Positions 1,706 to 64,000 of a stretch of DNA of 64,000 nt are shown here, piece by piece. The DNA is taken from NCBI GenBank assembly GCA_977862235.1, contig OZ374557.1:2852001-2916000 (forward strand). The letters are read 5' to 3'. This DNA comes from Dudresnaya verticillata. Its lineage: Eukaryota. How positions within the stretch are numbered: position 1 is the stretch's first letter; the number at the start of each line of letters is the position of its first letter. The notes beneath the pieces are model-generated. The model was not told the DNA's origin and ran no database searches. It saw nothing but the letters and a program-made list of their open reading frames with translations. The position numbers were made by a program, and so were the translations under genes.

Positions 1706-1738
<33 letters not shown>

Positions 1739-2236: not shown

Positions 2237-2253
2237 CGGCCCCCTTATTAAAG
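2237..2253 (-). promoter_or_regulatory. Polypurine tract of element A
   Basis: Minus strand reads AATAAGGGGGCCG directly before the 3' LTR. Confidence 0.75.
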
Positions 2254-15106: not shown

Positions 15107-15124
15107 TTCTAGGTCGGGAGACCA
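15107..15124 (-). promoter_or_regulatory. Primer-binding site, probably tRNA-Tyr
   Basis: TGGTCTCCCGACCTAGAA next to the 5' LTR. Its complement ...CGGGAGACCA fits the eukaryotic tRNA-Tyr 3' end (C1-G72, A73). Confidence 0.7.
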
Positions 15125-15125
15125 C

Positions 15126-15777
15126 TGTAGTAGAATGGCCACGGGGCCAGGTAGAACGGAAACAACCAGAACACCTGTCCTATGGCCAACACTAGCTTTG
15201 GTAGCTCGGCGGAAAAGGGGAGTTGGTAGAGACTTGGGGAAAAAGGCACAAAGCCTAGGGAAAAGGGGGAAAAGGAACGGCGGCGCTACCCAGCTCGCGC
15301 AGAGCTTCCGTCGTGCGGAGACAAGGCTCGTAGAGCGCCTGAAAGGGGAAAAGGGTACAGTGAGTCCGTGAATTCCAGAAAGAAGGGCAAAAGACCCAAA
15401 CCCACCGTAGGGTTCTATTCAGGAGGCCTCTGCTACTCAGGGGCCTATTACGTATAGCAAAGCCGGGAATGCTTACCTCCTATTAGCTATTCTAAACTAT
15501 TCTAGCTGTAATTATTAATCTAGTAGTACTGTTGTCAGTTATAAATACGGATTAGTGGAAGTACCGCGTCGGGCCGCGTGAGCGGCCACAATAAATTACC
15601 CAATGGCAATTCGCCATCACACTTGGTGCCAGCAGGGACGCCAGCGGGGCGCATCATCCTTACAGCGTACGGCGCTTGTGCGCGCCTTACAGCTTGATGC
15701 GCGAGGGCGTCTTACACCTTAATGCGCACACATGACTTACAGTGCGCTAGCACTCTGCTGCGGCTCATTCTTCCACA
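15126..15777 (-). repeat. 5' LTR of element A
   Basis: TG...CA ends; direct repeat of 1149-2236. Confidence 0.9.
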
Positions 15778-16727
15778 CCGAACGCGGGTTATCGACGGCC
15801 GCGCGTCGGCTCGCCCGTCGTCCGCACACCGAAATGGCCACTTCAACACAAGCGGCAGCAGCCGGATCAGGGGGACTCGACATTCTTCACTTCGATCGCG
15901 TCGATGCGAGAAGTACTAGGGTCTCGACGACTTCTAGGTCGGGAGAGCAGTGTAGCATAGACGTCGGGTCGATACGAAGTCTGATACTCGCTGGTCCGAA
16001 ACCGTCACACAGACCCATTGATGGGTAGCTATTGTGTCGTAGAGCGGTGTCGGCCGCGTGCGCCCCGCAGGTGCGAATCGACGGCGTCGATGCCGGAGCG
16101 CGCACGGGGCGTACCGTACCAGGGTAGGCAGCGACCGGATCCCAGCGTACCTGTCGAAGGGCGGCACGAAGCCGATGGAAAGGAAAAGGAAAAGCCTAGC
16201 GAGGCAAGGGAAAAGGATAACCGACCTCTGGCGTATAGGAAAAGGGACCGAACCCGAAGAGGATGTGAGCAAGCTTCAGTGCGAGCTGTTGGTTCCCCGG
16301 TTGAATGAACCGTCAATGGCAGACGGCCATAAATACCCTACACTATGTACACTACGGCTACTATACAGTGGCGGTACGCCCTGCAACACCAACGCGGGAG
16401 GTGTGCGTGCGCGCGCCCATACACGTGTCGACACGTCCGGGTAACGGCTACCCGTCGGCTCGCGCGGGGCGTAACGGGCAGCGGCCCTCTCAACGGCTCG
16501 ATGCCGGAGAGCGCCACTGGGGCGCGCCACTGGGGCGCGCCGTGTGCGGCACGGCGCGCGGATGCTATGACAGTAAGGCGATGGACCGCAGCTAAAATCA
16601 ACGAACAAACTAGAGGCTCGTTGCCCAATCACGACTTGCCAGCTGGCGTCGTCGGGTGCATCATTACAGTGCGTAGCTGCGCACCCCTTACAGCCGCTGC
16701 TGAAGGGGTGCTGACCGCTATTCTACA
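15778..16727 (-). mobile_element. Family B 5' LTR (15951-16727) with mutated PBS and truncated leader
   Basis: Reverse complement of 2406-3179. TTCTAGGTCGGGAGAGCA at 15932-15949 resembles the PBS of element A. Confidence 0.85.
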
Positions 16728-21522: not shown

Positions 21523-23755
21523 CCAATGTCGCCCGTCATGCAGTTTCAGGGGTATAGGAAGTTCTAGAAGATGAAACTGGGCACAAAGCTGATTCGAATA
21601 CCAGTCTTTCGAGTTCAGAGTTATTCTTTGGCTGCGGGGTCTGGGCAAAGCCATTTTACCGTCTGAAGGCTTCTTGACACCTGTAATTATTCCAGAATCG
21701 TTCTTCCCTTCTATTATAACAAGCGGTTGAGTGAATTGAGCTGCCATTTCTTCCCAACTCGTTTCCCGCTTCCCGTCCTTTATACATACCTGAAATGTAG
21801 TAGTGGAAAGAAGAGCCTAACCACCGCTCCTGGTTCCAGGACGGCATTGACAGTAAAAGCGCACTGCTCTGAAGGCTACCTAATCACCATGTTTCTGGCC
21901 TAGAATTCCTTTTCTTTGGGAGCGGAAAGGTGCGCCGTTCTACTGAGGCCGGTTGTCACGATTACTCTCCTTTGTCTCTCTCTCAGCTTTGTCTTTTCCT
22001 AGCAGTGCCCGCAAAAAGGAAGAGTTGGCGTGGTCTGCATGAAAAACGTTCTCCCGTGGTTGTGCAACAGTCTTCAAAACATCAGAGACCTAAAAAAAAG
22101 CAGGTGGGATAGCCCTCAAAACAGCCATTGCTCTACCCATGTTTTTGCTTCTGTCCTAACGGGCTCCCTCTAGCACTTGTTTGTTGGGGAAGGCAAGCAG
22201 GACATGAGCACGAATCGATTCCTGGACATCTATTCTCATGAGCACAAATCGCTTGACTCAATATGTATGGTACCTGTTACCTGTTACGCCTGCAGTATGC
22301 AGCAAGAACTGGGCAGGACCAATGCCGAGCAAGGGAAAGGGACAACGTGCAGGGGTAGTCCCATCCCTGACTCGGTGCCAGTGCACCGTGGTTACCCCAG
22401 CCCCCATTGAGCCGGCTCTAACACACGTGCAGCACGAGTAATCATTGCCCTACTGCATAAATAGCCACGTCATGGCATCGCGATACCTGCTGGCGCAAAT
22501 CTCCACCAACATCCAAGCTACTCCATAAACAGCTCCCACAGTCACCAACAGAGCGTACGCTGCATCCGGTGCAACGGGGGTACACCTCCGTGTATGTGCC
22601 CATGCTCAAACGCTCCACAATAAATTCGACAGACCCGTCTGTAGCTTCTAACATCCTGTGCCATTGATTCTCGCCACGCTCTCCACAAGGTCCAAACCTC
22701 CTTCAGCAAGCGGCACAAGATCGTTCCTGATCAACAATGAGGGGTTGCGTTCCATTATACTCCTCGACTGGTTGCCTACTCACTTCTCATCAGTCTTTTA
22801 CTGAACCGCTGGCTCATGAGCCGTGGTTCACCTGACCAACCATTTCTCGATTTGCGGTTCTGGCTGCACTTTGTGCACGAGCCCCTGTCTTTTTCCGCTT
22901 TGGCTTGTTATCGAGGAAAACGTCCCCTCGAGCTTCCCATTTCAACTCTTCCTGAAGCCCTGCCCTATTTGAAGGAGAAGCAGCACATACGTCCCGTAGC
23001 AGATCATTCGATTCCTGTGACATCTGTTTGTCGTCATCGGCCCTGAGCAGCTTTACTCCTGCAACAAAGTCTGGCTTCGGTCCCCATAGAGGCATTACAC
23101 ACGGAAATAACTTGAGCAAACGAGTCTTCACATTCGCCACATTGTCTTGGCGTAGGGGTAACAGCTCTTTCTTGACTTCCATTTTGAAATGGCATTGAAC
23201 GGCTTGGTCGAGACGATGTCAAGTTCAAACTTTGCACCATCAATGAACGCCAGGCACACCCAATACACCTACCCTCAAGGAACTTCCGTGCGCAAGTGGA
23301 TCTGGGTATAATTTCGCCGGGTCGTATACATTTACCTCCCTTCGTTCTGAAAATATCAGAAACTCCTAGAATCAGACAAATCAGGTGGTTCCACGCCATT
23401 TTGCAATATATCCCAGACGTATCACCAGCGCCGGCACCTGCCTTCACCTCCTCAATATTAATTCCCGGTGGTATCATCAGCTGGAAGGCGATCTTCGCGA
23501 CTCGGAGACGACAACCGTCGGCATGCTGGACCAGAAATGTCGTAATCTTAAGCTGCAATGCGTGAAGATAATGACGGGAAGGAAACTGCTACTTCCTCTA
23601 CTCGAAGGCGTTTGCAGTTGCTCGGCAAAGGGCTGATAGTCGGCAACGCTGAGCCACTCGTCCCACCAGAGCCTAGTGCAGCAGACAGTAAATGATGCTA
23701 TTGCACTAGACTACATGGGTATTATCTGCACGAAGTCGAGGAGGAAGGACAAACA

Positions 23756-24367
23756 TTGGCGGTCATTTACAAGGTGAAGATAGAAGCAGAGTTTGCTTGG
23801 AAGACATCCCGTTACACCTACAAGGCCGTAGAAGATCCACCTGCTACTCTTCGCGGTCTTGAGGTTGGGATGCATGTTTGGGACGTGTCGCAGATGCGCA
23901 ACAAACACGTTCCCAGCCGCTCCAATAGTAAACCTCACTCACCAACCCCCGAGACACCTCTAGACAGGCATAAACAGGCCGTGAAAACACCACCCAAGGC
24001 TTGGAGAGGAGGAAAGCGACTCACTGTGGTTTCCCCGCAAACAGCACCGTCGCCAGCATTAACCGCGTCACCTCTGCAGTACACACCTCGAACCAGACCT
24101 ACATGGCGACCTCGGCCACAGGTTTTAAACCTGGCAGATGGACCTACTCCGCGAGAAGAAGAATCTAGTGATGAGGTATATGTACCGGGGAGTGAGGGGA
24201 CGATAGCGATACGCTTGAAAAGGCGGAGAAAGGGGCTGAAAGAGAAGGACCAGTGGAACCAAACGAAATATCCAGCCCTCTCTGGGGAGACAAGTGCTGC
24301 TGCTAGACCAGGGTCGGAAGAAGAGGACATGCACATAGAAGAACAGAACACTCGGCAGAAGCGATGA
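23756..24367 (+). CDS. Hypothetical low-complexity ORF, possibly the N-terminus of the transposase
   Basis: 203-aa open frame with a basic NLS-like KRRRK, directly upstream of the transposase fragments. Confidence 0.3.
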   Translation: MAVIYKVKIEAEFAWKTSRYTYKAVEDPPATLRGLEVGMHVWDVSQMRNKHVPSRSNSKPHSPTPETPLDRHKQAVKTPPKAWRGGKRLTVVSPQTAPSPALTASPLQYTPRTRPTWRPRPQVLNLADGPTPREEESSDEVYVPGSEGTIAIRLKRRRKGLKEKDQWNQTKYPALSGETSAAARPGSEEEDMHIEEQNTRQKR

Positions 24368-24429
24368 TACGTCTATCAAAACAGGGCGAGAGGAAACCGC
24401 ACTGTACCTTTGATGGCCAGCAAGCGCCG

Positions 24430-36790: not shown

Positions 36791-38413
36791 TGAATTGAAT
36801 ACCTGGGGTATTCAATTCGGATGCAGTGGAAGATGAGAGATATTTTTCAGATTTTTCAGATACAATATCTGGACCGCACTCTGACACGTAGAACAGCAAC
36901 GGCCTTCCGTAATGACGGTACCCTAGATGACAGATGATTTTCTGTTATCCATGCATGTGACAGACCACAGTCCGCCAGACACGTTTCGTAAATTCGATCA
37001 CACTATGTGACCTACTATTTTCTGTATTGTGCCACAGATATCTGATATATATCTGTCGTAAATGACAGAAAACATTCGATCACCATAGAAGGTGATGGGC
37101 CTTGGCCTGTCATTTAGCATGCCAATGGATATATCCATCCTATGTGACCGTATGATTGCATATGCAATATGCTTGCTGTGAGTTAGGTACCTAGGCGTAT
37201 AGGCCTCGAGGGGCTTTAGCAGTAGCTACTTTGGGACAAATTGCAACTGCAGTTGCATGTAGCTATGCTGTCAGGCAGATGCTGCACAGAGCATCCCGTG
37301 CATAGCTTCTAAATGTACAGGGAACGTGCACGTTCCGTCCAGGTTTGCTAATTCGAACAAGTTTAACCTAGCCAACCTGAATCCTTTATGCCACTAAGTG
37401 CCAAGCTTGCCACTTGGTGCTAAATACACAGGTTGGCTGCAGTAATCAAACTTAATACTACGCAGCCGGTTGTATTCTGCAATAGAAGTGCCCGAAACCG
37501 GTTATCTCCGAACCAGTGCCGGCACTGTCGGCCGACCGGCCGGTCGTATCGTTCCCGTGCTGCGGTGCTGAAGCTCATATATCCGTATCCATATATCGAG
37601 CGGTTATCGCATCCAGCGGATAGCATTTCTTCTGCGCCACAAAGACTGTGCGCAGACAGTTGAACACGAATCCGTTGAAATAATACCTCAGGTTATCACG
37701 GTTGTAAGGTAAACGCCTTTTGGCATTGGCCGTTGATGGCCGGCTAGCCACTTGTAGAAAATCTCTCTCGAGACGCCACTTGTGTTTTCCAACTGCCGCT
37801 GCGCCATAACCGTGCTGTACACACACATACCCGTCTGCGTCAATTTATGACTGTTGTGTCCCTATGGATAGGGGGTTATCTGAGTATATCCCACGATTTC
37901 TAACGAACAATTGTACCAAAGCGATTGCAGTGCTATGATTGCAGTGATATGACCGACTATATTACATCTTCTGCTGATATGTCCGTTTCTGAACTATCAC
38001 ATGGTGAAATTAGATATATATTTATAGATTAGTTTGTGATTGCTCCGTCTCAAACGGATACCGCAACCGCTTCCTTCCGTTCACTATATTTTACCTGTAC
38101 TTCGGTACTTGTGTACCGTTGAGAACCACTGTTATAACAGTCATTTTATGGATGTATACGCGCAGAACTCTTCATGGCCAACAGTTCGAAACGGTGCATA
38201 TTGACGACGGGAAAGATGTGTTATGTGCGCTGTCGCGACAGTCATGGCTAGCACTACGCGATATCGCACTAGGTAACCTAAGGCGGTTGTTTCACATAGA
38301 ACAGTATAAAATTCTTTTCGCTGCTCGAACACATGATATGCTGTTTGAGAATACCCCTTCTGCAATTATCTGCTGCTAGCTGCACCCCCTCCGTGTCGCT
38401 ATTGTGAAGAAAC

Positions 38414-41056
38414 ATGGGAGTTATTGTGGTTAAGGATTCCTCTCCCTCTACTTCCCCTCCTTATTCTCCTATTGCGAACTCGCGGCACTCGCGGGCAGAC
38501 GTTCTTGCCACAGTACTGAACGTCACTTCGTTCCAATCCAAAGATGGTTCCAAAGATGACGACAGAACAATAACTCACAGTTTCTCTTCTGTTGTACAAA
38601 GCATCCAACGTACTAGTATTGGGGCGCAACCGTGTCGAAACATGTCTCCAGTGGACAAATGCATAGCAGCAGAGCTCTTCCGGTTTGAAGAAAGCGAAAA
38701 GAAGTATCGCATCTCGAAGAACATTTATGCAGAAGCTGTTGTAGTTGCACCGTCTCCTCCCGCATATTTCCCGGTTTGTCCGGGAGGTTTTGCTACTTTC
38801 TGCTCTCTAGCAGGCTACGAAGTCGACCTTCCAGGTTTCATCGAGGGTTCTTCGTATTCGCTCAGAGGGAACGTTGATTGGAAATCTTCCGTCATCCTTT
38901 GCGAAAACAGATTTGAAGTGCCCCGTCGGACATTCATATGCTCACGAATCAAGTATTTTCAGTACACTGAGGAGCTCTATAGCATTCCGCACAGAGGGCT
39001 TTGGAAGAATGAGGCAGAAGACATCACTGATGATCGCGAAAATCCTACCTGTGAAGAGATGGAGATGAACCTTGCTCGCCAAGTTTTCTTCTTCGCCCAA
39101 AACAGCTTCCCACTGGCTTGCAAACATTTACAGAGTCGCAAAGGCTTTTTCGATCAGTTGCAAACCCCAGAAATGTCATATAATCGACAAAACCGAGTTC
39201 CCAACTGGTTGTTCAAGGTTGGAAAGAACGTTGGTCATGAACTTGGTAGGTCATCGTCAAAGCTGCCAGACATCATTGGGTGTGCTGAATTTGGGAGACC
39301 AGGAGTGGTGGATTCCAGAAAGTGTACGCTGGTAAAGCTTCCTCCCCGACTGCAGGGTGCGAACCCTGATCTCGTCGATATGCTGCGAAGAGGCGCAGAG
39401 AATGGTATCTTTCCGGTATCTCAACATTCAAGAGGGAGGTGTCCACCTTTGAAGGCAAGGTACCCTGGCAAATTCTGCCCTAGTCCAATCCACGGCCAAT
39501 AATCTCCTAAAGTCATTAGGCTGAAGTGTGCTGCTGAATACCATTACCTGTTCCTCAGTAGTGAGGATGGGAGCTTGTCATGGGTTATTTTTGTCGGAAT
39601 TGGGACGTATCTACATACATGGCCGAAAACAACCCCTTCTCCGAGCTTGATGAAACACTTTGTCGAGAGCCAATGTTCAGAAAATCCAAAGATGACAAGT
39701 TGGGCTCTTACAATCAGTTTTGAAGAAAGGTTCAAGCTAAAGGTTCCTCTCAACACAATACGGAAGCTAGGAAATCAGTTCTGTACAGATACGTATCCAT
39801 TTGGGCGCTCGGTTCATGCGCTGATCGCAATTTATCGGGCAAGATGTGGAAATGATGGAAATAGTTTCGTCATTTAAATCGCTGATCATAGTTTACAAGA
39901 CGAACGGAGACAAGTGCGTGATCAGGAAGGGGCTTCCATTATCATAGCAATCGAGGAGCTACTGAAAACGGCTGTTAAGATGCCTCGGTTGGGATGTGAT
40001 GGAACCTTTGGTATCGTCAGTTCTTACGATCAAGATCTGAATTTCGAGCTCAACACGATTGTCGCCGAGGATGATAAGACTGGAAAGGTATTCGGAGTCA
40101 TGAGGCAGCTCTGCTCCAGAAAGACGGTGGCGGCAAGGAAGATTTTGTGCAAAGAACTGGTTTCGAGGCTCGTTCTTTTGGGCTTGAAGGACCCTCTCTC
40201 GGCTCCGATTGGTAAGCGAATGAACATGGCGACAGACTTTGAAACGACTTATGCATTTGCGTTGGGGCGTGCATTGTCAGAAGAATTTCGGTCTGGTTCG
40301 GACATGGAATACGTTCAAGCCGTTTGCTTCCGATGCGATGTGCACGCAAAGCGGTTAGTAATGGAGAAGTGCGACATTTCTCAGGACCCATCTCTTTTCA
40401 GTTGGGCAGTGGGAACGAGGAATATCTTGGAAGCGGCCGAAGTGGATGAGGCATTGCGTGTCACTACGGGGATGGGTGGCAAGTGGGAGTCTTTCACACA
40501 ATGGCTAGTGAACAACAAATTTGCTTTGTTCCTTTTGTTTCACCGGTACTACTCAAATAAGAACCCTGCAGAGCTATCAAGCTCTGTGTTCTGGGACACA
40601 AATCCTAGCGAGGCCATGAATGCTCGGAAAAAAGGCTTACCCAGCTATCTTCAGACCAATGGTCGAGTTCTGGACCTGGTAGAGGCAGTGAATGAGTTAA
40701 AAGTAATGGACGATGGGGATGCCAGAAGCATAGCGAATTTTGCTCCAACTCAAGGGATACAGTACTTCTCAGAACCCGACTGGAAGAGGTCTCAAGCAAA
40801 AGCAAGGAAAAGGGACTTCGACGATGTAATAGTGATCGATGATGAACCTGTTCCCGCGTTGCATCCGAAGAAAGCTTGGAAGGCTTCCAAGAACAGTACA
40901 GGTAGTTCGAGGGTAAGAACTAGGCATAGTGTCCTGGCATCTGCAGAGAAGGTTGATGCTCCCATAAGGAAGACAGAAGAACTCACTTCTCTAGTGGAGA
41001 AACTCATAGCATCCCAGAGCAATAAAAATGATCGGCGTGAATGGGCCATAGCATGA
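38414..41056 (+). pseudogene. Mutator-like (MULE) DDE transposase, split into three ORFs
   Basis: ORF 39914-41056 has CDGTF, ATDFE, CDVH (CxxH) and DTNPSEAMN. Upstream ORFs 38414-39502 and 39575-39877 are colinear, separated by a frameshift and a stop. TIRs not identified. Confidence 0.75.
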
Positions 41057-44240: not shown

Positions 44241-44825
44241 CTACGGTCCGAAGGTGCAAGCACTGCGCGAGAAATCGGATTCGCTTACGAAGGAACCTTC
44301 ATCGCTTGAAGCTCTTCCCCGCTACGCGTCCACTCGAATCGGTCGCGATTGACATCTTAGGCCCGTTGCCACCAACGCAATCCCGACGCAAGTTTACCCT
44401 CGTGATTACGTTCCGATTTACGAAGTTGACCCAGGTGGCTACACTACGAGTCATAACCACGTATCACGTCGCAGTTGCGTTTTGCGAAGTTTGGATCTTC
44501 AAGTATGGACCGCCAGCCTCGGTGCTCTCGGATAACGGAAAACAATTTACTTCGAAGTTCTTTCAGGGCGTCTGTCGCCTACTCGGGTTATCGAACGTGT
44601 TCACCTCCGCATGTCATCCGCAAACGAATGGACAAACCTAACGATATAACCGGACCATCCTCCGGATGCTTCGTAACTACGTGAACGACCTCCAAAACTA
44701 TTTGGACCGCTACGTCTCCGCGTTAACGTATTCGTACAATTGCCACGTTCATCAGTCTACGAAGACAACTCCGTTCAATCTCGTTTTATCGCGACCGCCG
44801 TCCGAATTCACCGTCAAGCGACGTA
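44241..44825 (+). pseudogene. Gypsy integrase fragment from a separate element
   Basis: CKHC..LFPATRPLESVAIDILGP..VLSDNGKQF..HPQTNGQT. Lies upstream of the E gag, so not part of E's own pol. Confidence 0.85.
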
Positions 44826-44827
44826 TA

Positions 44828-46818
44828 TGCCAGAAATCCCCACTCAGGTGTTTCCGCCCGATCCGGTAAGGACAGCGGCAGCCCCTGGGTTACCTACCCA
44901 AACTCAATACACCGAATTGGATCCAACACACCAACCCCAACCGAATCGGAGTACGGCCCCTGGACCCGCAGAAGTGCCTGCGGGGGAACGTATCACCGTG
45001 CCGGTGGCTTCGCGTAGAGGCCGTGAGCACTCCGATGGTGACTCCAAGAAAAATCAAGACCGGAGTGGTAGAGACAGTGCTAACAGAAAGGCCAAGGACT
45101 CCCACTCCAATAAGGAACGTGACCGTTCGCAACGGAGCAAACGCGCTTCGCGACGGGACAAAGAACACTCCGGTACGGAATCTGATGATAGCCAACACCG
45201 CAATAGGAAGAAGAATAAGCGCAAGTCGCGCCATAGGCGCCGAAAAGGGCATGAATCCTCCCATTCCTCCGGCTCTGATACGAGCTACTCCGATACGGAT
45301 AGGGACGAGCGGCGTCGGGCCAGAAAACACGACGCCAAACACCGAGAGGTCGACAGGCCACTCCCAAAGGCGATCCGGCCCCTGAACGACAGGTTCGTGA
45401 AGGCGATGGATTTCCGAACATACCGACTGGAGAAAAAGAGTTCATACTACAGCTCTAGCTTGTCCCAGAATATGGGACGCATCCGCAGAAAGCTGGAGGT
45501 ACAAATGAAGTCCCACTCCTTTAACGGTACAGACCCCATCACGGTCCTTGGATTTCTCGCGAAGTTCAAGGATGCGTGTAACATCAACTCCGTTTCAGAA
45601 GGAACCGCACTGTGGTTTTTCCAGCTTTTCTTAAGTGGACAGGCTGAAGCTTTGCTTCAGGCCCGTCTCGCTCTTGGCACCATGGCGGTCGACGAGGAGC
45701 AAGCAGAGATGCTTCGCACCTATACCGAAGCGGGGAACCTTTTGCTAAGGACTTATGCTACCGATGAGGTGATTCCCGAAGGGTATTCGGAGGTAACGTC
45801 GTTTCGAAAAACTTCGGCTTTAACGGAAGAGCAATTCTCCAACCAACTCTGGACTAAGGCACTCCGATGTGGTACAGGATTCTCCGACAGGTCCCTCAAG
45901 TCGCTGTTTGTGGAAGGACTCCTACCGGGAACGGGTCAGCAGATGCGCAATTCTCTGGCCACATACCCCCATATGTATAACCAAGCCATAACCCGCTACG
46001 CTAAAGGGCTTGGAGAATCCCATCGGGAAACCAGACGCCAAACCTCAGCGGTGCACGTCTTCGACGGAAAACCTAAGAGTCAGTCACGACGTTCTGGCGT
46101 TCTGTCGACTGATTCTCCATCGGAGTACACCTACTCGGAGCATCCCGCTGAATCAGAGGAGCACGTGCTCGCCCTGGAAGGTGCCGCGGGTCGACGCGCC
46201 AGCACCTCGTCGGGGGTTACGTTTACTACAGCGTACTCTTCCCCACCGAGTAGTGTCTACCCTACTCGGCCTCCGACTCTCAACTTACGCCCACCAGTGC
46301 CACGGATGCAACCACCCCGGCAACCCCGCTAAGGACCGGCTGATAGCCGCTACGGTCCCGCCACACACCGTCAAGGAACCCACGGGCAGCATCCCAGCCA
46401 TATCGGACACCCCCACGGTAACACGCCTCCCCGTCAAGGGCAGGGCGAACACCGTATTGGAAAACAATCCCCTACCGCAGAGCATACGGATCACACCTCA
46501 CCGGATGTCAGACGTCTCTATGGAAGCGGCTACTGTCGCTCGTGCCTCTCCCCGGACCATGTTATTTGTCCGTATCTGAGCGACACCGAAAGGGGTCCCC
46601 TGATGGAAGAGCGTGAGCGCAACTATCAGGCGATCCTCCTCAAACGGCAGGCCTCGCCAACTCCAATACGGGAAATCGTCCGCCGGGTAACTACCAGCAA
46701 TGCCCAGCGCGGGTGTTGACTGTCCATGGTCGTGCGGTTGGCGAGCCCCCAGCTGATATGATGGAGAAGGCACTCATGGGGCACCCCGACTCGGAAAACA
46801 TCGCAGGAGACGTGTAAG
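44828..46818 (+). pseudogene. gag: gag of element E
   Basis: ORF to 46332 (FNGTDPITVLGFL..LLRTYATDEV). Zinc knuckle CRSCLSPDHVICP follows in another frame. Confidence 0.85.
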
Positions 46819-49800
46819 GGCGTCCCCGTCTCCTCAATGCGACGGGGTACGCCCACCAGCACGGGCTTTGCCGGACTGTCAGTCCGCCACCATTACGGAG
46901 TATCCCTTGATTTTGTTCCAGAACTCCCCCTTGAATTTCCACCACGCGGTGATTCTGTCTGTGTTCTACAACGGCAGAATTATAGAATCCAGATTACCGT
47001 GGGAAGGGGTAATGACCTCATGTTGCCTCTCATCACCGTATTGGATTCTGGTGCTGGGCCCAATCTCATTAACGCTCGAGGGCTTCCACGCCACTGGTTG
47101 TCTTTGATTCGCCCAGCTACCAGTCCACCTTTACGGGATGCGTCCAATAAGTCGATACGCCCACTTGGTGTCATTCAACTTTTTGTCCGTATCGGAGAAT
47201 TGCGTACTCGAGTCCACTTCCTGGTGGTCGCGAACCTCGCTGCTCCGTGTATTCTGGGAACCAGTTTTTATTGATCGCCCTGTCAACGCGATCCTCCAAC
47301 CGGCACGGAAAGTTGTTTTCATCACCACTCCCCGGTTTCGCTAATGGGACAAACCAGACACTCCAAAACGGTGGCTGCTTCTACTGTTCAGGGCCCTCCT
47401 GTGTCATCCGCTTCGGTATCGCATAAGCTCCGCCTAGCAAAATCCCTTATTATCCCCCCTATGACCCAATCCCTTGCATTGGTCACCACTCCTACCGGTG
47501 GTTTGTGTTTTCTTCAAAACCATCCCAAACCCATCCATAAGCACCTGCCCCTTATGGCTAACGGGGTTATGGATAAAGTCCCTAACAAACCCTTTAAGGT
47601 GTGGCTGACTAATGTTCCCCGAAACCGGTGCGGTTACCCAAGTCTACCGTCATGGGCCTCGCTACTGCTGCTCCCTCCGCCATACTCACCGTTAACGATG
47701 TACCTCCATTTAAGGAGCGGGGCGGAAATATTAATTCCTTTCCTACTTCTCCTAATGAAAGCAGCAAGGCTACACCCCAAGGTGGATTCGAAGGAAACAC
47801 CGTGTCGGAATCAACTACAACCCCTGACACCGACTGGAAAGATAACATCCATATTGGTGCCAAGGATGAAAAACTCCGCGCCAAGGTGGTTACACTCCTC
47901 GAGGAGTTCAGCACTATGTGGAACGGCGAGTTAGGAAATATAACTGCCGCGAAACACCGTATTGAATTAATGCCTGGTGCCAAACCAGTGTATCACGCAC
48001 CATATCGGGCAGGACATAAACAGAGTGAGCTGGAGAAGGCAGAAGTGGATCGTATGTTGTCCGCTAAGGTGATCGAGCCATCCGCTTCGGAGTGGGCCAG
48101 CCCTGTGGTCTTCGTTCCTAAAAAGGACGGCTCCATGCGGTTTTGTGTCGATTACAGGCGACTTAACGCTGTCACCGTTCGGGATTCATACCCTTTACCC
48201 CGGATGGATGAATGTATCGACTCCCTTGGAGAAGCTACAGTATTCACCACTCTGGATTGTAATAGTGGCTACTGGCAAGTAGAGATCCCCGAGGAGGAGC
48301 GTGACAAAACTACCTTCACCAGTCATTATGGATTATACCGCTTCCGGAGAATGACTTTTGGGCTCAAGAACGCACCCGCTACTTTCCGACGGGCGGTTGA
48401 CATCATCCTATCTTCGGTGAAATGGCAATTTGCCTTAGTCTACCTGGATGATGTGATTGTATATTCTAACACCGTCACGGAGCACTTCGAACACCTTAAG
48501 GAGGTCCTCACGCTACTCCGTTCCGCAGGTGTAACTCTGAAGTTATCAAAGTGTGCCTTCTTCGACACTTCCGTACAGTATCTGGGCCACATAGTGCGCC
48601 CGGGCCAACTGGAAGTGGAACGGAAGAATATTCTCGCCGTTAAGGAGGCTAAGCCACCTACGAACCAAACGGAGTCGCGCTCTTTTCTAGGATTATGTAA
48701 TGTCTATCGACGCTTCGTTCCCAATTTCGACCGCATTGCTTCGCCACTCAACAAGAAAACCGGCAAGGGTCTGGTATTCGAGTTTGGAACTCTCACCGAA
48801 ACGGAGTTTAACGCCTTTGAGGAGTTAATGAGACACCTAATCTCTCCTCCAATATTGGCTTTACCCCGCCATGGTTTCAAGTATACATTGGATACCGACG
48901 CTTGTGATTACCAAGTTGGGTGTGTCCTTCTACAGGATCAACCTAGTGGAGATAATCTACCAGTGGGTTACTGGAGCCGAAGCCTAACTGATGTGGAGAA
49001 GAAGTACAGAACCACTGAAAAGGAGTGCCTTGCTGTCGTTTGGAGTATGCTAACGCTACGCCCCTACCTTTACGGTGAAAAGTTTATACTCCGTACGGAT
49101 CACGACGCATTACGCTGGATATTGAGTTTAGCCGATGCGTCTGGACGCTTAGCAAGATGGCGCCTACGCCTATCGGAATTTGAGTTCGAAGTACAATACC
49201 GCCCTGGTATCAAGCACCAACTCGCAGACGGTATGTCAAGACTCCGAACAGGTGGTGCTGACAAAGCTGAATTGGATGAAGAAGTGCCTTGCTTCGTTAT
49301 GGAATCGACTCCTAATGGTGTAGTGCACCATGGTGTGCGACTAACCAATTGGAAACAGACTCAGCAGCCTAAGGCCGCAAGCAGCCTTTCCTAGGCGTTG
49401 AAAGTAGAGACACCGAAACGGATACTACGCCTGAAAAGGATACAGTGCCACCCACTCCACTCCGGCAAACAGTCATCCAACAAGAGGATATGCGCAATGA
49501 GGCCCTTACCCGTGAGGAGTTCATAGCCGCGCAAGCAACAGATACTTTCTGCAAGCTTAAAACCGAATCGGTGGGATCCCCTGGATCGCAATTTGACTAC
49601 GACCGACATGGGTTTCTTGTGCGCAAGTCTGCCCTCGACGGCGGACTCCAAAAGGTGGTACCGCAACAGATGCGCCCCAGGGTCCTGTATCTTGCCCACT
49701 ACACCTTGATGTCGGGACACCCTGGTGGAATTAAGATGTACTACACCTTACGAAGAGACTACTATTGGCCACAAATGGCTAACGATGTATTCGAGACCGT

Positions 49801-51190
49801 TCGGAGTTGCCGCTCATGTGTCAAAACCAAGGGCACGCGGTTTAAGCATCAGAAGTTCATGAAGCTATTTCCAGCGAGTGGCCCACTGGAGTTTGTCGCT
49901 ACGGACATACTAGGCCCGCTGCCGAAAACCAAACGGGGATATGTCTTTGTACTGGTCATCACCGATCGGTTTTCTAAACTAACACGGTGCATCCCGTTAC
50001 GGACGATTACAGCCGTCGTGGTAGCGAATGCATTTTTAGACCATTGGGTGTATGCGTATGGCGTACCTAAATTTGTACTCACCGACAATGGAAGACAGTT
50101 CACGGCAATGTTCTTCGACGCTGTCTGCGCCCTACTTGGAGTGCCGCATTTGTTGACCGCTGCCTATCACCCGCAAACCAACGGGCAAGCCGAGCGGTTT
50201 AACAAAACTATAGCGCAGCGCCTCCGACACTACTTCGAGGATCACCACACTGATTGGGATTTATACCTACAGCCGTTGACCTACTCCTATAATATGCAGG
50301 TACACCGGATTACGGATACTACTCCCTTTGACTTGGTGTTAACTCGACACCCATCGGATATTATTATGCGTGGCACCCCTGTGGAGTTGGAAGAAACCGT
50401 TACGGAGGGGCGTATGACGCCCGTACTCCAAAAGCGGGGAACCATGCGGCGTTTGCGCTATGCCCTACAGAAGGCGCAGACCAAGCAAACTACAGCCCAG
50501 TTGAAGTCGAAGGCCCTATTCGACCGTAAGGTGCGTTTACGACCGGTGGTTCGCGGTGGCGATCAAGTCTACGTAGATCGCCCGCCGCGTAATCTACGGT
50601 CCACCGAACGGAAGGAACGCGACCGATTGGGTCAAGGCCCTGACCACGTCGGTGAATTTGCGGAGCAAATGAAGAAGCTCCTCCCAAGATCGACGGGCCC
50701 CTATGAGGTGCACACCGCAACGGATACTGTAGTCAGTATCAAGAACGATGGCGTCCTGATTCCCATCAGCATCGATCGCATCACTAAGGTACCAATTGGA
50801 GCTCCCGTGCAACCGGCGCCGCTATTGGCCCCGCCGGTTACGCCACACACCGATATGGACGGTACAGTATCCCAGCAGGCGGGAGGCACCACAGTAGTAC
50901 CCCAAACACCAGGTGGTATTACTGTAACACTCCAAACGCTAGGCGGTATTTATGTCCGCGTGCCGGAGACAATTGATGCCGACAGGGAGTATGTCATCAA
51001 GCAGATCGTGGGACACCGCGAAGAACCCACGGGCATGACCTACAAGGCGCGTTGATACGACTACCCACCAGACCAGGATACGTATGAACCCGCTGAGGAG
51101 TTGCCGCAAAACTTCATACACCGCTATTGGAATAGGAAGCGCACGGCAGCCGCTGCAGCTCGACGCCGCAGAGCCCCCACGCGTCGATAG
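46793..51190 (+). pseudogene. pol: pol of element E: PR, RT, RH, IN, chromodomain
   Basis: VLDSGAGPNLI; VYLDDVI and DTDACD (47628-49394); H..GHPG..CRSC, TDNG, ERFNKT (49445-51055); EYVIKQIVGHR..YKAR*..DTYEP. A few frameshifts. Confidence 0.95.
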
Positions 51191-51686
51191 CCGGTCGCTA
51201 ATCACCTACGCAGTAGGGGTTTTGGCAAAATCGGGCATGACCTCTGGACTCTGGAACCACAGAACCCTTGCCCAAGGGGCTCTACTACATATTGGTGAAT
51301 CGCCGGCAAGCGCGCAACCACTTCTGGTATCAGGTGGTCGTCAACCAGACACAAAGCCTTGCATAGTGGCGAGTATCCCCGCCACTTCGGGACTCACTCC
51401 ACAGTGGTGTTATTCCACTTCCCCTCCGCCAGTGGAAGGGGGGCTCACAAAAGTCACAAGATTTTATTGACAAGTGGCATTTCTACGCTTACACCGCATT
51501 TCGCGGACGCTTCGCTGGTGGCGCCAGGTCAGCCTCCGTATCTTCCTCTTTTGCCGCGCCCTCCTCCAAGTCGGGAATATCCTCACCATACACTCTTGCG
51601 GTAATCATGGTGAGTCTCCTACCGGTGTCTGCCATGCGTCGACGCGAAGCGCGAATGGTACGCCGTAGGCGCACCAGACGCCCTAC

Positions 51687-54360
51687 TCACAGCACGGCGG
51701 TGTTAATGGCCTCGTTCGCCGACGCTGGAAGGGGCATGCCCGCATCTCTACACCCTTCGTGGAGTCGCTGCAGGGCAGCCCCATCTACGCGCAACTCCGC
51801 TTCGGTCCAACTCGTCACCTCCTTCGGGGCATCCTCCTCTTGTTTCACCACCATGAGGTCGACATTACGGGGTGGCCCTCCACCTGGACCCGCAGCGGCC
51901 ACAAACGTCACGGAGTCACTCGACGCGGGCGACACCGGTTTGGCAGCTTCACCCCGCTTCGGTACAGGGGATTTCACTGCTAATCCAGGCCGTGTGTTCG
52001 CAAGTGCCTCCACTTGGTCGATCCCCGCCGGTGTAGCGTCCTCTTCCATTTCGGAGTCTTCGTGTTCCCAGACGGGGCCCAACTTCGCCGCGGCGGCAGC
52101 TACTACCGTGGGCTTCTCACAAACTACCGCTACGGTATTCGCCGCCTTGTCCAACTTGGTGTTCTTGTTGACCCCCGGCGAGACAGCCGGTTTCGAAGCC
52201 CCGATTGGTGTGGATGCCGCGGCCACCCCGACAAACTCTTTGCGCCTCGATCTCCACTCCTACAGGAGGAGACTCCGTTACGGTCTTCTTGGGCGACGAA
52301 GTCGTGCGGTCGCCCCACACCTTTATGGCTTCTCCACAAGGGGATTCTCTTGGCAAGAGGACCCTTGGGCCCCCGCGAACCTTCTCAATCTCGTCAACCC
52401 CCACTGGTGTAATCTCGTCAGCAGGCGGACTGTCGAGGCGTCCCTGTTGATGCAGCACACCGGATGGAGTACCCCACTCGCGTGACGGTGGAGCCCTTGA
52501 TGGCCCCTCCGTCATGGGGTAGAACCTTGAGCGGGAGCGCATCGCGTGCCAGCTTGACATCTTCTCGCCGATCAACCACGCCGGCTCGGGGTCTTCTTCC
52601 GATAGGAAATACGCCATGCCACACCCGGGGTTGAGCGGCGGCACCGACAACACGCGGTCGTCATCCCAATGATAACCGATGAACCCCGGCGTTCGCTCCC
52701 AGTTGGTGTCTGCGTGAACCGCGAAGAGACGCTCCACACGCGCCAAGGGGTATTCGGTCCCCTCAACCAACCGGTCTACTCCGACTTGGTGTATAAGGGT
52801 AACCACCGGCCCGGGTAGCTTGAATATGCGCCCGCACTCGCCAACTTCCGGATCCGTTCTGCTCCGCGGGTACGCCTTCCAGTCGGTCATCTTGGTACTG
52901 GCTCTAACACCCCGGTAGGTGATCTGTAACCAGGAGAAGAGGACCAACATGGCCCATTCCGCTCGGAGTATCCGACCCAACACCGTCATCAGCGGATGGT
53001 CGACTGACTTCTCTCCGCCTGGGTGTGCAGCTTGCCAGTCACGATGTTGAATGAACCGATTGGAGAAGTACGCCACCACCATCGGCGTTGGCACTGACAA
53101 CCAACGGGTGACTTCATACTCAGCCCACCAATCCGGAGCGGTGCAGTACAAGCGGCGATGCGCCCCCGGCGGCACCTGGAAGAATTCGTTGATGTTCCAA
53201 GTGTGGAGTATCGCCCTTCCGAGGCGGCGTCCATCTCTACTCCGCAACCGGAGTCGATGCTCTTTCGCTGCGTCGTCAGCCCACCGTTGCGGATTCCCAA
53301 ACCAATGAACACCTTGGTCGTATGGTTTTCCATAGCACAGGAAACCGACACCAACCGGATGATCTCGCAGTCGATGGGCCATGACCAACAATCGACACAC
53401 CTTATCGGGATAGCCTTCTTCTTCCTGACACCTCAAACACACGATGTCACACCCGGTTGGAGTTCGCACTCTACAGTTTGAGTGAATCCACCTGGCTCTC
53501 CACATCTCCTCACGCTGAGTCGGGAACCACTTGTTGTTGATTAACCCACCGGCGTCGGTAACAGCACTGTAGCGACGCCCCTCGAGGGTGCCACCATAGT
53601 TGGAAACGAACACCGATACGGGCATGGGGAGATGCACCATATCGCGCTCCTCTTCGGTACGCTGACGCCGCCCGGTGCGGTGATCATATTCCCGGCCCGG
53701 CCAAGTTCCCTCATCGGTGTACCCCGTCGAGTCCACACGCCCGTGGTAGCTCCCCGGTGTCCCCGGCGCGTATGGCAGTGAACCCGACGGTCCGCCGCCG
53801 ACATCCAAGTGGAGTGGGGGTGAGGTTACTCCACCTCCAACCTGACCAACCTGGGGACTTTGCGCGTACGCCTCATATCGCCCATGCGGAGTTGCGCGAC
53901 GATACCTCCCAAGCTCCATCTCGGTGTTGACTTTTGAAGGACCGGGCCGTTGTGCCCCCGGCCCCACCTGTCGATCCGGAAGCGGAGTAGACGCCTGTCG
54001 AGCCTCGCCGCCATCGCGCCGTCGCGGCACCCTCTGGCTACCAGCGCGTGCTGGCAGCGTCGGCGTTGCGCCCGCTGCCGCCGCAACTCCCGCTATGGTG
54101 TCCGCGAACCCGCCGCCTCCTCCCTCTTCTGCCTCCGGCGCCGGAGCCGCTCCCACCGACGATACACGCCATGTCGGTTGGAAGGGGCTCCGTGCGCGGT
54201 CGGTGTTACCGCCCGCCATCGCTAGCGGTACACCGGTTTGGACTTGCCCGTTGGTCGACTTGCCTGAAGTGGAGTGCACCGATGAGGCTCGCTCCGTTGT
54301 TGGGTACACCTGAGCGGAGTTGTAGAAGACGTGCTGTGGCGCACGAGGACGTGTCGCCAT
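51687..54360 (-). CDS. Antisense accessory ORF of element E (747 aa, 52117-54360, plus overlapping 179-aa tail)
   Basis: 2.2-kb open frame with its ATG adjacent to the PPT/3' LTR. Cys/His cluster. Motifs shared with ORF 3542-4942. Confidence 0.8.
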
Positions 54361-54375
54361 TTAAGGAGGGGGGTC

Positions 54376-55051
54376 TGTGGTGAAGCGGCCGTTGTGGAGT
54401 GCCGACGACGGTTGAACCGACTCGCGCCCGGCGCACCGGTGAGCTGGCGCCAAAACCCGAACGGGAGTGCAGCGGCACAGTAGCACTGTACGCCCTTCTT
54501 GGAGTCTGCGCGCACCACCAATAGGAGCCAAGTAGTTGATTTATTTGTAATTAGGTAATTATAATCATGCTGTACAGTACGTAGTGTCAGCCGGCCAATG
54601 AGAATGCCGAGCATGTCCGCAACGGTGACCGGGACCAGTAAGGCCGGACCCACCTGGTGGACCAGACCCATTGGGGTCTGGCCCACACGGACCGGACCGC
54701 GGGGTGTATCTCCCAGTATATTAATGGGTGGCCACCGCGAGTCCTACAGTAAACCGGTACGCAACGCTGGGCAAAGTGACTTACCCTAAGCCTTACCCTC
54801 ATACTCCTTTACGGTTTCCCCTCGCCAGCCCCGTGCACGGATTCCTCTTACCTCCGTCCCGGTGTAGCTGTCCTGGCACTGTACCGTCCCCCTTGTCTGT
54901 TGCGTCCCTTTACTCCTTACAGGTGTTGCCGCTCGAGATACTCCCTTCGGTCTACGAACTAAGCTCTACCACCCCGGTGCCGTGTGAGATCACTCCTTAT
55001 TGAGATTGCCTGATCAGCTCTCCTTACAGGTGTGCCTTTCACTTCACTACA
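54376..55051 (+). repeat. 3' LTR of element E (family C-related)
   Basis: TGTGGTGAAG...CTTCACTACA, directly after the PPT. Confidence 0.88.
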
Positions 55052-58451: not shown

Positions 58452-58575
58452 TCTGCGTCATAAATAGTACAAGTTTGTTGGAAGACATGACGGACCTGGG
58501 ACCGCCCTTGCTACTGCCGAGAGTGACTGCTGCGGTTTTGGCCTGAGTTTCTTGTTCTGTACTCCCATCCCGGTG

Positions 58576-59559
58576 ATGAAGAAGACATTTGACGTGGCCA
58601 ACCATAATAAGCTGCTTTCCCTCTGTGACCAGGATAGTGCGATGGGTTTTGAGGATATGCTCATTTTTCCTGAACGGAATGAAGAATCAGTTTGGAAAGT
58701 TAAGCATGACCTACTTGTGTCGGAGATATCTCCTTCTGTGGTTGATGTTGAAGCTACTGGCTGCAGGCATCCTTCAGACTGTGAAGGACTTCATGAAACA
58801 TCCTATCTACATGATCTTACCGTGAAGGAGGAAAGTGCCGACGCGAGCAGCTCTTCTACAAGAAACATCGTGCTTGACGATCTGTCTTGTTCGAGGCCAC
58901 TAGATTGTGATATTGCTGATGACGGATTGCTAACCGAAAGATTGCGTAACTTGACCGAGAACGGCACTCAAGAACTTACTGCTCTATGGAACATTGCTTC
59001 TGCGGTACCAAGTCATCTCGAAGACGCAACTTATCATTCATCTGAGAACGACACTCCAGCAACCTCATGGTATAGCTCAGCTTCGACAAGGACACAAGGT
59101 ATCCGCAGGGTTGATGGCTTTTTCCCTGAGATGGTCAGGAAGGGCGTGACCAACGATTGCAGGTTTCACAAAGAAGTTCAAAAGCCTCCAACCACAGCTG
59201 GAATTGGGTTAGGGGACCTAAAAGCGGTGTTCCACCTAGACCGGCCGAAGGCAGAGAAGCAGCTGCGGCTAAAGCGGACTACGTTTTCCAACCTCAACAG
59301 GCACTTCGGGATTTCGAAGTGGCCATTTCGAACAATTCGGGACGCACTGAATCGCATGAAGGCCAACCAGGACACATTGTTGCGAGCAAACCTGTCTGGG
59401 GATCGAGAGCGAAAGCTGATTGAACAGCAAAAACTGCTCGCTGGAGTCATCAAGTTGATCTATGCAAAACCCAGTGAAAGTCGGGACTCGAACACATTAG
59501 CAGTGTTGCTACAAATTGTTGCTTCTAGGGGGACCTCGGCAAGCTGTCAACCTCTATAG
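58576..59559 (+). CDS. RWP-RK domain transcription factor (divergent)
   Basis: Uninterrupted ORF. IGLGDLKAVFHLDRPKAEKQLRLKRTTFSNLNRHFGISKWPFRTIR fits the RWP-RK pattern and is followed by a helical segment. Confidence 0.82.
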   Translation: MKKTFDVANHNKLLSLCDQDSAMGFEDMLIFPERNEESVWKVKHDLLVSEISPSVVDVEATGCRHPSDCEGLHETSYLHDLTVKEESADASSSSTRNIVLDDLSCSRPLDCDIADDGLLTERLRNLTENGTQELTALWNIASAVPSHLEDATYHSSENDTPATSWYSSASTRTQGIRRVDGFFPEMVRKGVTNDCRFHKEVQKPPTTAGIGLGDLKAVFHLDRPKAEKQLRLKRTTFSNLNRHFGISKWPFRTIRDALNRMKANQDTLLRANLSGDRERKLIEQQKLLAGVIKLIYAKPSESRDSNTLAVLLQIVASRGTSASCQPL

Positions 59560-61595: not shown

Positions 61596-63823
61596 TGTGA
61601 CGCTGGAGCACTGCTCGCCACAGTATGCTGCCGGCACACAAGCGCCCGCTAATGCGTCATTAGTCACTTCCATCCGTCAAGGCTTGCAGTAATTCGAGAG
61701 CCTGCGGGCCCCGCTGCTCGGCGCGCCGCTGGAGGGCAATGCTCTCGCCGCCGCCCACAGCCGCCGGGTCCAATCTGTAGAGTAGCAGATAAAGGCGCAC
61801 GGTGTGGGTCACCGCGGAGTGAAGCGGTAACCAACAGGTACCCCCCGTTGCAGCGCCGTCCACCTTCGCCGAGCCTTCCCTTTAGTTCCCTTGCGCTCTA
61901 TCGTCCTTATAGCGCCTCCCCTGCAACTAAGCGCGCACCTCCGCACGCGCGTTGTAAGCAAAGTCCCCGAGTCGTCACAGTAATTACGATGTAATTTTTA
62001 TGAGGATATTGAGTTGCAGTTGAAGATACTCGTCGTATCTCACTGTGGGACTATAGGACACCGCGGCAGAGCTGCCACAAAGCGTGTGCTAGCAGAGTCG
62101 TTTTGGTGGTCGAACATGGAAAAGGATGTTGAGACTCTAGTGCGCGGGTACCTTCACTGTATAGTGACCCGGAGAGGCGAGGTGGTACCACGTCCGCTCG
62201 GCACCGCACTACATGGCTCCAAGCCTAATGAGGTACTTCACCTCGATTTCCTGTTCATGGGGTCTGGCAGGGGACGTATGAAATACATACTAATCCTGCG
62301 TGACGATTTGTCGTCATACGTTTGGTTGTGGGCTACGGAAGCCTGCACCAGCGAAGCTGCCGCTGAGGCGCTCGCAAATTGGCTCGGTGCATTTGGAAGC
62401 ATGGTATGGCTCGTAACGGACCAAGGGTCTCATTTCAAGAACGAGCTCATCGCTGACTTGACGAATGAGATAAGGGTACACCATCATTTCACGACGGCAT
62501 ACTCGCCTTGGGCAAATGGGTCCGTCGAGAGGGTCTGTCAGGAGGTCCTGAGAGCGTGCAAAGCCCTGCTGAGCGAATGGGGACTTGGGCCGCAAGACTG
62601 GCCGGCTGTGACAGAATGTGTGCAGAGCGTACTGAACCACTCACCTTTAAAGCGTTTAGGATTGCGGGACAAGAAAGTGAATGACGTTTACAGAACACCG
62701 CTAGAAGTTTTCACCGGGCACTTGCCGGTACGTCCGCTGCTCCGCGCGTTACCAGTTGACAAGTTTAAGAATGCTCATAACCTGGATGAGGTGCGCGCAC
62801 TCCAACTTATTGATGTGGAAAGAACTCAAGATGCCATTTCCCAAATGCACACAGACGTTGTAGGGCTGGTCACGGCCTCAAGGAAGAGGAAAATAGACAA
62901 GCACAACCGCAAGACGAATATTTCTGCTGCCAGCTTTAACGTTGGGGACTTTGTTCTTGCTCGTCGTGCGAGAAGAGGAAATCATAAGCTACAATTCTCT
63001 TGGTGTGGGCCCAGACGCGTTACTGAAGTCAAGTCGGACTGGGTATACAAGGTCGAAGACCTAGTGAACAACAAACGCGAAATTGTTCACGCCCGACGGC
63101 TCCATATGTACCGTGCAGATATGGATGGAAAGCCCGTTTCAGAAAAACTGCTGCAGGCAGCCAAGCGGTCTGAAACATGCTTCGAAACTGCAAAAGCATT
63201 GCGAGCTATTCGAGACCATGAAGGTGGTCTGATGGTGCAGATTGAGTGGGAAGGACTTCCTGACGCAGCTGACTATACTTGGGAACCGCTGAACCAACTG
63301 TTTGAGGACTTGCCTGGACTACTGGAGGATTTTCTCCAAACAGCCGGTGATCGACCGCTAACGCGCAGAGCCCTCAAGCAACTCTCTCTATCAAGTTAAT
63401 GCTTTACCACTTCCGGTGGTGCGGCAAACCATGGGGCCCTGTGACGCTGGAGCACTGCTCGCCACAGTATGCTGCCGGCACACAAGCGCCCGCTAATGCG
63501 TCATTAGTCACTTCCATTCATCAAGGCTTGCAGTAATTCGAGAGCCTGCGGGCCCCGCTGCTCGGCGCGCCGCTGGAGGGCAATGCTCTCGCCGCCGCCC
63601 ACAGCCGCCGGGTCCAATCTGTAGAGTAGCAGATAAAGGCGCACGGTGTGGGTCACCGCGGAGTGAAGCGGTAACGAACAGGTACCCCCCGTTGCAGTGC
63701 CGTCCACCTTCGCCGAGCCTTCCCTTTAATTCCCTTGCGCTCTATCGTCCTTATAGCGCCTCCCATGCAACTAAGCGCGCACCTCCGCACGCGCGTTGTA
63801 AGAAAAGTCCCCGAGTCGTCACA
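61596..63823 (+). mobile_element. Integrase-only LTR retroelement derivative
   Basis: 384-bp LTRs TGTGACG...CGTCACA at 61596-61979 and 63440-63823 (about 7 differences counted). TSD GAGAG. 1460-bp interior. Confidence 0.93.
62014..63399 (+). CDS. Gypsy integrase plus chromodomain (5' truncated pol)
   Basis: H..GHRG..YLHC, LHLDFL, VTDQGSHF, NGSVER, WCGP, VQIEWEGL..TWEP. Confidence 0.9.
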   Translation: MQLKILVVSHCGTIGHRGRAATKRVLAESFWWSNMEKDVETLVRGYLHCIVTRRGEVVPRPLGTALHGSKPNEVLHLDFLFMGSGRGRMKYILILRDDLSSYVWLWATEACTSEAAAEALANWLGAFGSMVWLVTDQGSHFKNELIADLTNEIRVHHHFTTAYSPWANGSVERVCQEVLRACKALLSEWGLGPQDWPAVTECVQSVLNHSPLKRLGLRDKKVNDVYRTPLEVFTGHLPVRPLLRALPVDKFKNAHNLDEVRALQLIDVERTQDAISQMHTDVVGLVTASRKRKIDKHNRKTNISAASFNVGDFVLARRARRGNHKLQFSWCGPRRVTEVKSDWVYKVEDLVNNKREIVHARRLHMYRADMDGKPVSEKLLQAAKRSETCFETAKALRAIRDHEGGLMVQIEWEGLPDAADYTWEPLNQLFEDLPGLLEDFLQTAGDRPLTRRALKQLSLSS

Positions 63824-64000
63824 GAGAGAGAGTTTGTGTTTACTGGGATCTTGGGTATGGAAGGCAGAAAGCGCTTGTGGGTCGGGATGTGGTATGATAA
63901 ATCGCAGTATCGTTATCTGCGGGTTCAATAGTCGAACTCACTCGAGAGCTGGGGCCGGCCATCATGTACACGGTGAACGACATGCAGCGCGACAAGCAGC

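Follow-up and report, generated by a model that had tools for sequence, protein, structure and literature searches.

Within a 64,000-nucleotide stretch of DNA (the window), which is a nest of decayed transposons, two LTR retrotransposons, here called E and A, each carry a long open reading frame (ORF) that runs antisense to pol on the side of the 3' LTR. A sequence-only reading had taken these ORFs, both present as described with all six of its quoted motifs verbatim, for one uncharacterized protein family expressed from an antisense promoter. The locus raises the questions of whether the two ORFs are homologous, whether such a gene belongs to the elements in general, and what its protein may do.

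Two decayed elements and their antisense genes

Element E carries gag and pol on the plus strand and is arranged as follows:

44830-46332, plus strand: gag; the 5' LTR is absent and gag adjoins an integrase fragment
46950-51190, plus strand: broken pol with protease, RT, RNase H, integrase and chromodomain (PR-RT-RH-IN-chromodomain; domain matches)
50990-51136, plus strand: chromodomain of the integrase, with a stop inside (PF00385, E value 1.6e-6, read across the stop)
51489-51686, minus strand: final part of the antisense gene, beyond a premature stop, with an NLS-like PPAKRPR at its end (about 51489)
51690-52259, minus strand: tail of the antisense gene, in a second frame (tail-motif profile, E value 2e-4, the sole match in the window)
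51693-51779, minus strand: short helical C-x3-G-x3-P family motif in the tail (tail-motif profile)
52117-54360, minus strand: antisense ORF, the open 5' part of the gene (747 codons)
52633-53685, minus strand: conserved folded core, amino acids 226-576 (profile match, E value 5e-82; pLDDT 86, pTM 0.87)
54363-54373, plus strand: polypurine tract (read from the sequence)
54376-55051, plus strand: 3' LTR, TG...CA, sharing 68% identity with the solo LTR at 360-1048

The 747 codons, counted from the ATG, compare with a mean of 185 and a maximum of 432 codons in 500 base shuffles of the region, and the remaining five frames contain 13 to 22 stops across this span (12 to 20 across that of the A ORF). 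The gene runs on past 52117, where the final stretch of the 747-codon ORF before its stop is probably off-frame, and the tail frame is itself interrupted by a premature stop at 51687-51689, giving a full gene of about 957 codons with two lesions. At least five lesions (four computed and one read by eye) occur in the approximately 2100 codons of gag-pol, and pol itself stays open over runs of 593 and 560 codons. The antisense gene of E is thus not better preserved than gag-pol, and the contrast between an open ORF and a broken gag-pol, as originally drawn, provides no evidence of ongoing selection on this copy.

The first ATG of the E ORF lies 15 nt from the 3' LTR, and with translation from this ATG the 5' end of an antisense transcript would be nearly forced into the LTR. 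On this ground it is plausible that the 3' LTR holds an antisense promoter, presumably inside 54376-55051. A sigma-70 promoter scan was set aside, the host being a eukaryote.

Element A is inverted relative to E, with gag and pol on the minus strand, and its antisense ORF (3542-4942, plus strand) has its ATG at 3578:

1146-2237, minus strand: 3' LTR with an insert of about 435 bp, 94.5% identical to the 5' LTR
2406-3178, strand not assigned: solo LTR from a different family, inserted between the antisense ORF and the 3' LTR (ACTTG duplication)
3578-4942, plus strand: antisense ORF, 454 codons from the ATG, with the core match at 4127-4657
4943-5892, plus strand: probable tail of the antisense gene, low-complexity and broken (from composition; no family-motif match)
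7355-11912, minus strand: pol, with a weak chromodomain match (PF00385, E value 0.006)
12818-14279, minus strand: gag (sequence reading)
15123-15778, minus strand: 5' LTR, followed by a PBS-like TGG tract

The antisense gene of A is broken by a stop at 4940-4942 and has further breaks beyond it, and motif and profile searches of its tail found neither the terminal basic motif nor the short helical motif described below. Proximity to the 3' LTR, which had been claimed for both ORFs, applies to E (15 nt); in A about 1.3 kb, including the nested solo LTR, lies between. Both copies in the window have decayed and are probably dead.

The RT sequences of E and A are 54% identical, which places the elements in different families. 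Their domain order (PR-RT-RH-IN), LTRs and polypurine tract are those of Ty3/gypsy elements (Metaviridae), and relatives have similar integrase C termini. The label "chromoviruses" initially given to both holds only in the sense of chromodomain-bearing, on the PF00385 matches listed above (clear in E, weak in A); chromodomain Gypsy lineages also exist outside the chromoviruses (PMC12477816).

Several other features surround the two elements. Solo LTRs at 360-1048 (TACTC) and 2406-3178 (ACTTG) are flanked by 5-bp target duplications and are related to other LTRs of the window. Two different elements are cut just past the integrase PFxLVLxRxP motif, at 17032 and at about 44800-44830, element B continuing from there into an LTR, and an integrase fragment into the gag of E; the shared cut could mark a recombination-prone spot or be due to chance. 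Direct repeats of 385 bp (98% identical) at 61596-63824 enclose only an integrase-plus-chromodomain ORF (61984-63399), and this small element is young, non-autonomous and derived from another lineage. An ORF with an RWP-RK domain (58468-59559, plus strand; PF02042, E value 2e-7) probably represents a host gene for a transcription factor, lying amid the repeats. Two long ORFs lack a Pfam match (23696-26503 and 38408-41056) and, by eye, resemble DNA-transposon remnants. A broken cassette at 30166-32601 (minus strand) combines a weak ParB/GmrSD-like N terminus (E value 0.02) with an N6/N4 DNA methylase (PF01555, E value 1.3e-5). Accessory genes of this kind are reported from red and brown algal DNA transposons (PMC12477816; bioRxiv 10.1101/2025.02.11.637652), and a profile search of the window found no homolog of the antisense core beside the cassette.

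The antisense protein family and its predicted fold

Compared with each other alone, the E and A proteins are only marginally similar (BLASTP E value 0.001; the score is reached by 14 of 1000 shuffles), with 19% identity over 165 core columns, and their homology is carried by profiles. A HMMER search with amino acids 240-640 of E recovered 103 clusters at 50% identity (E value ≤1e-3), 26 of them at ≤1e-10, among 1.84 billion representatives. A first profile, made from the long matches in 47 of these clusters with E and A excluded, matched A with an E value of 7e-11 and recognized only E and A in the six frames of the window. A wider profile of 77 sequences, also built without E and A, matched A at 2.4e-16 and placed all three motif pairs in order, as had been proposed, with A lacking an insert of approximately 23 residues that precedes the third motif. 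A third profile, from eight ORFs of loci found through their RT, matched A at 3e-15, E at 9e-10 and nothing else in the window. On these sequence-profile grounds the homology of E and A is taken as real.

Identity between lineages of the family is about 15 to 25%. Among 30 family representatives looked up, the sole organism name was Gracilariopsis chorda (one of 30 clusters), whose members PXF39757.1, PXF42436.1, PXF44118.1, PXF45335.1 and PXF45952.1 (representative E value to the E core, 2.7e-25) are annotated as hypothetical; like the 103 clusters as a whole, they are known here as protein sequences. From this name and from the ParB-like/PF01555 methylase cassette of the window, a kind reported in red-algal transposons, the host is taken to be a red alga, and the retrotransposon group that carries the antisense gene probably belongs to red seaweeds. 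Word-indexed protein searches with E (amino acids 240-640) and A gave no match, and an alignment-based search returned eight unnamed proteins. No relative was found by a scan of metagenome, viral and prokaryotic contigs with the DNA of the E core, which detects close relatives only, or by a scan of viral contigs with the E RT. The core tree (76 rows with at least 150 filled columns) has long branches and poor resolution, and no claim is based on it.

Full-length relatives measure about 550 to 1160 amino acids and share a domain order consisting of a variable disordered N terminus, the core of approximately 350 amino acids, a disordered Pro/Ser-rich linker, in many cases a short helical motif along with a coiled coil, and a basic motif at the C terminus. 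SMC-type coiled-coil matches were present in the tails of four of 40 members. Of 28 tailed representatives, 11 have a K[KR]x[KR] motif among their last 30 residues, against 0.5 expected (0 of 1000 draws); its absence from the other 17 counts against a nuclear reading. The profile of the helical tail motif was made from ten sequences and found no nonseed members among the 28 tails, so that this motif is not universal. Short hydrophobic-acidic "VIDL"-like motifs occur in three tails (P0001, P0008 and P0019) and at 5860-5890 of the window, and resemble SUMO-interacting motifs (SIMs). As a clue to SUMO this was rejected: a loose, post hoc SIM-like pattern was found in 12 of 28 tails against 3.5 expected, but strict SIMs in four (2.9 expected) and SUMO sites in five (3.1 expected).

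The AlphaFold2 model of the E core is confident (pLDDT 86, pTM 0.87) and mostly helical. Residues 181-330 of A are modeled at about 75 to 93 (overall 63), and their helices and short strands follow one another as in E, the two models being compared by element order. Both are nearly all helical, and no RNase H-like chain, such as a disarmed DDE transposase would call for, was among the fold matches listed. Foldseek with the E core model returned nothing at an E value of ≤0.001 in the PDB or BFVD, and the best VIA match had a Z score of 3.6 (rmsd 4.8, 107 residues aligned). The A model likewise had no PDB fold match, its best Z score was 2.7 (rmsd 4.7, 130 aligned), the best E value of a sequence-profile search of the PDB was 1, and ESM Atlas gave no usable feature match for E or P0002, for which the structure rows came from a poor model (TM ≤0.32). 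Pfam, NCBIfam and PHROGs did not match the core, giving only coiled-coil matches in the tails. The original observation that neither an env nor a known domain is recognizable therefore agrees with the Pfam, NCBIfam, PHROGs, PDB and viral fold searches. The core fold may be new to the PDB, as far as searches run mainly with the whole core against the PDB and viral models can show.

Position, inheritance and selection in related elements

Whether the antisense gene is a regular part of these elements was addressed in metagenomic RT relatives of E. The best 80 of 201 loci, drawn from few samples, fall into about five RT clades (RT tree without a named outgroup) and are accordingly not independent. 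Among them, 22 are long, with at least 3.5 kb of DNA after the RT, and an antisense homolog lies downstream of the RT in 16 of these 22 by a profile without locus sequences and in 18 by the wider profile. Over the best 80 loci as a whole the two profiles found 25 and 31 homologs, at 2.0 to 3.8 kb after the RT with one at 0.4 to 0.7 kb, and none on the sense strand downstream of the RT. The four to six long loci that lack a homolog count against the reading as a conserved accessory gene of the lineage. Matches upstream of the RT (two and five of the best 80 loci with the two profiles) are taken to belong to neighboring elements. In two loci without an antisense homolog, the DNA downstream of pol instead holds a long ORF of a different kind on the sense strand (L023, 6214-9036; L027, 11059-13407; plus strand), possibly an inserted DNA transposon.

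In sister elements the antisense frame has a dN/dS of 0.18 to 0.31 and is free of stops in all four pairs, in which 2 to 15 stops interrupt the sense frame with which it shares the wobble position. Bootstrapping left 1 outside the interval for four of five ORF pairs: 0.31 (95% interval, 0.25 to 0.40), 0.29 (0.21 to 0.38), 0.32 and 0.40. The interval of the fifth pair spans 1 (0.67; 0.41 to 1.14), and that pair counts against selection. Integrase of the same clade has a dN/dS of 0.07 to 0.12 at a similar dS (0.42 to 0.49), and the value of about 0.3 for the antisense ORF thus indicates a protein that is conserved yet evolves faster. Identity of the antisense ORF follows that of the RT (rho 0.61, permutation P = 0.006, nine elements). 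Fixed position, dN/dS and tracking of the RT together indicate an old, vertically inherited, selected and fast-evolving part of the lineage. An uncharacterized, element-encoded antisense protein family was thus correctly recognized, and the purifying selection by which it was to be judged is seen in the sister elements, at about 0.3.

Known systems and proposed function

The plant Tat elements Grande, RIRE2 and Retand, and also Botrytis Boty, are established carriers of an antisense ORF between pol and the 3' LTR (PMC7264820, PMC11963269). In the same papers, these plant genes (aORF-3R) encode TRP28 and SMC domains and are of unknown function, and GENE23 is nuclear; REXdb describes extra ORFs as highly heterogeneous and typical of non-chromoviruses (PMC6317226). 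The present genes are likewise long ORFs antisense between pol and the 3' LTR, conserved across most loci (16 of 22). They occupy the same lineage-wide slot as aORF-3R of the Tat clade (Retand TRP28 [PF04195], maize Grande gene23, rice RIRE2 and bean PvRetro13) and share with them a conserved domain, often an SMC-like coiled coil, and nuclear signals, nuclear localization being reported for the plant proteins (PMC7264820, PMC11963269). They differ in that their host elements carry chromodomains, whereas Retand is a non-chromovirus, and in that the core is much larger (approximately 350 amino acids) and Trp/Arg-rich, in a host inferred to be red-algal. Neither PF04195 nor PF10536 was among the families matched by 101 members (E value 0.01) or among the 25 listed of 39 families matched by 40 members (E value 1), and by this Pfam test the family is not a member of TRP28 or PMD.

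Red-algal DNA transposons are reported to carry chromatin-modifying accessory genes (bioRxiv 10.1101/2025.02.11.637652). The Plavaka accessory genes PAG1 to PAG3 of the same preprint resemble the present family as transposon-borne accessory genes of red algae, PAG1 also lacking a known domain, but are located in DNA transposons. The retroviral antisense proteins HBZ/APH-2 (HBZ being a 3' LTR-driven antisense regulator) are a functional analogy only (PMC11963269, PMC7264820), and so are the element-encoded anti-silencing factors of VANDAL elements (bioRxiv 10.1101/2025.02.11.637652). The sequence and fold searches showed no relationship to HBZ/APH-2 or to VANC, the VANDAL anti-silencing protein. 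The literature searched, including PMC3350952, PMC2774666, PMC12477816 and the Bostrychia preprint cited above, showed no antisense ORF in red-algal LTR elements. The family accordingly appears not to have been described before, in a known kind of slot; Repbase, subscription papers or supplements could hold an annotation.

Neither the fold nor a family match in Pfam, NCBIfam, PHROGs, the PDB or viral sets points to a function. An anti-silencing or targeting function, as first suggested, is plausible. The reading tentatively preferred here, at somewhat below even chances, is that the antisense protein is a nuclear, nonenzymatic regulator that aids expression of the element against host silencing. 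Host-facing factors tend to diverge fast, and a positive, anti-silencing regulator is favored because the protein appears to carry nuclear signals and to be expressed on its own, and because its divergence far outpaces that of pol. Antisense transcription would start at a promoter in the 3' LTR, and the protein would enter the nucleus through its K[KR]x[KR] tail and oligomerize through the coiled coil. Its core may bind a host chromatin factor or the element's own DNA or RNA, and the protein would act in trans on copies of the family, on chromatin or transcription. Core charge is near neutral (+8 in E; -7 to +7 in 28 relatives), which does not favor direct DNA binding.

Among the alternatives, it is unlikely, if still worth considering, that the protein instead helps integration by binding integrase or the preintegration complex, providing nuclear import or a choice of target site beside the chromodomain. 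An NLS-like C terminus, strict coinheritance with pol and the role proposed for plant aORF-3R proteins (PMC7264820) all agree with such a helper, but the elements already have a chromodomain, the core diverges far faster than pol (19% against 54% identity between E and A), more as expected of a host-facing factor than of an integrase partner, and a separate antisense transcript would not by default be copackaged.

Somewhat less probable is a self-limiting repressor, protein or antisense RNA, that damps sense transcription and copy number in the manner of HTLV-1 HBZ. The antisense, 3' LTR-proximal position is that of HBZ, and double-stranded RNA- and protein-based negative control is discussed for aORF-3R (PMC7264820); an RNA effect, however, needs no large, selected folded domain, and the protein has no bZIP or known DNA-binding fold.

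Only slightly behind in probability, and likewise doubtful, is an enzyme of unsolved fold, with chromatin marks or nucleic acids as possible substrates, that was captured early and has held the slot since. Six core positions are at least 90% conserved in 40 sequences (two Glu, an Arg, a Tyr and two Pro), giving a few near-invariant charged or polar residues, and methyltransferase, SET and 2OG-oxygenase accessory genes are found in red-algal transposons (bioRxiv 10.1101/2025.02.11.637652). Against an enzyme, no core column is invariant, conservation is mostly of Trp, Pro, Tyr and Arg, and no profile library pointed to an enzyme family.

That the protein is env-like or a movement protein, carrying particles from cell to cell, is very improbable: the slot between pol and the 3' LTR would suit it, and in six of 28 relatives the hydropathy of a 19-residue window reaches at least 1.9, but the orientation is antisense throughout, the tail is NLS-like, hydropathy peaks at 1.45 in E and 1.33 in A with no clear transmembrane segment in the core, and the hydrophobic helix has a conserved Glu and packs within the globular core model. 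Least credible of all is that the E copy was domesticated or is still selected while its gag-pol decays, since its roughly 700 intact codons, whole core included, are set against two lesions in a gene broken at about the rate of gag-pol and against the long open runs of pol itself.

The preferred anti-silencing reading has a broader form, which is doubtful: an ancient, red-algal-wide counter-silencing factor with a fold absent from the PDB, independent of TRP28/PMD, that converged on the same antisense slot, core, coiled coil and NLS.

So far, antisense extra ORFs have come chiefly from flowering plants, in elements other than chromoviruses, and from a small number of fungi. The present family adds an independent, deeply diverged and very large one in chromodomain-bearing elements of apparent red algae, and offers a foldable, expressible target with named intact members in Gracilariopsis chorda. 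"Hypothetical host genes" in red-algal annotations probably include retrotransposon parts of this class. If the broader form of the anti-silencing reading is true, this would be the first anti-silencing protein from an LTR retrotransposon in this lineage and would provide a probe for transposon silencing in red algae.
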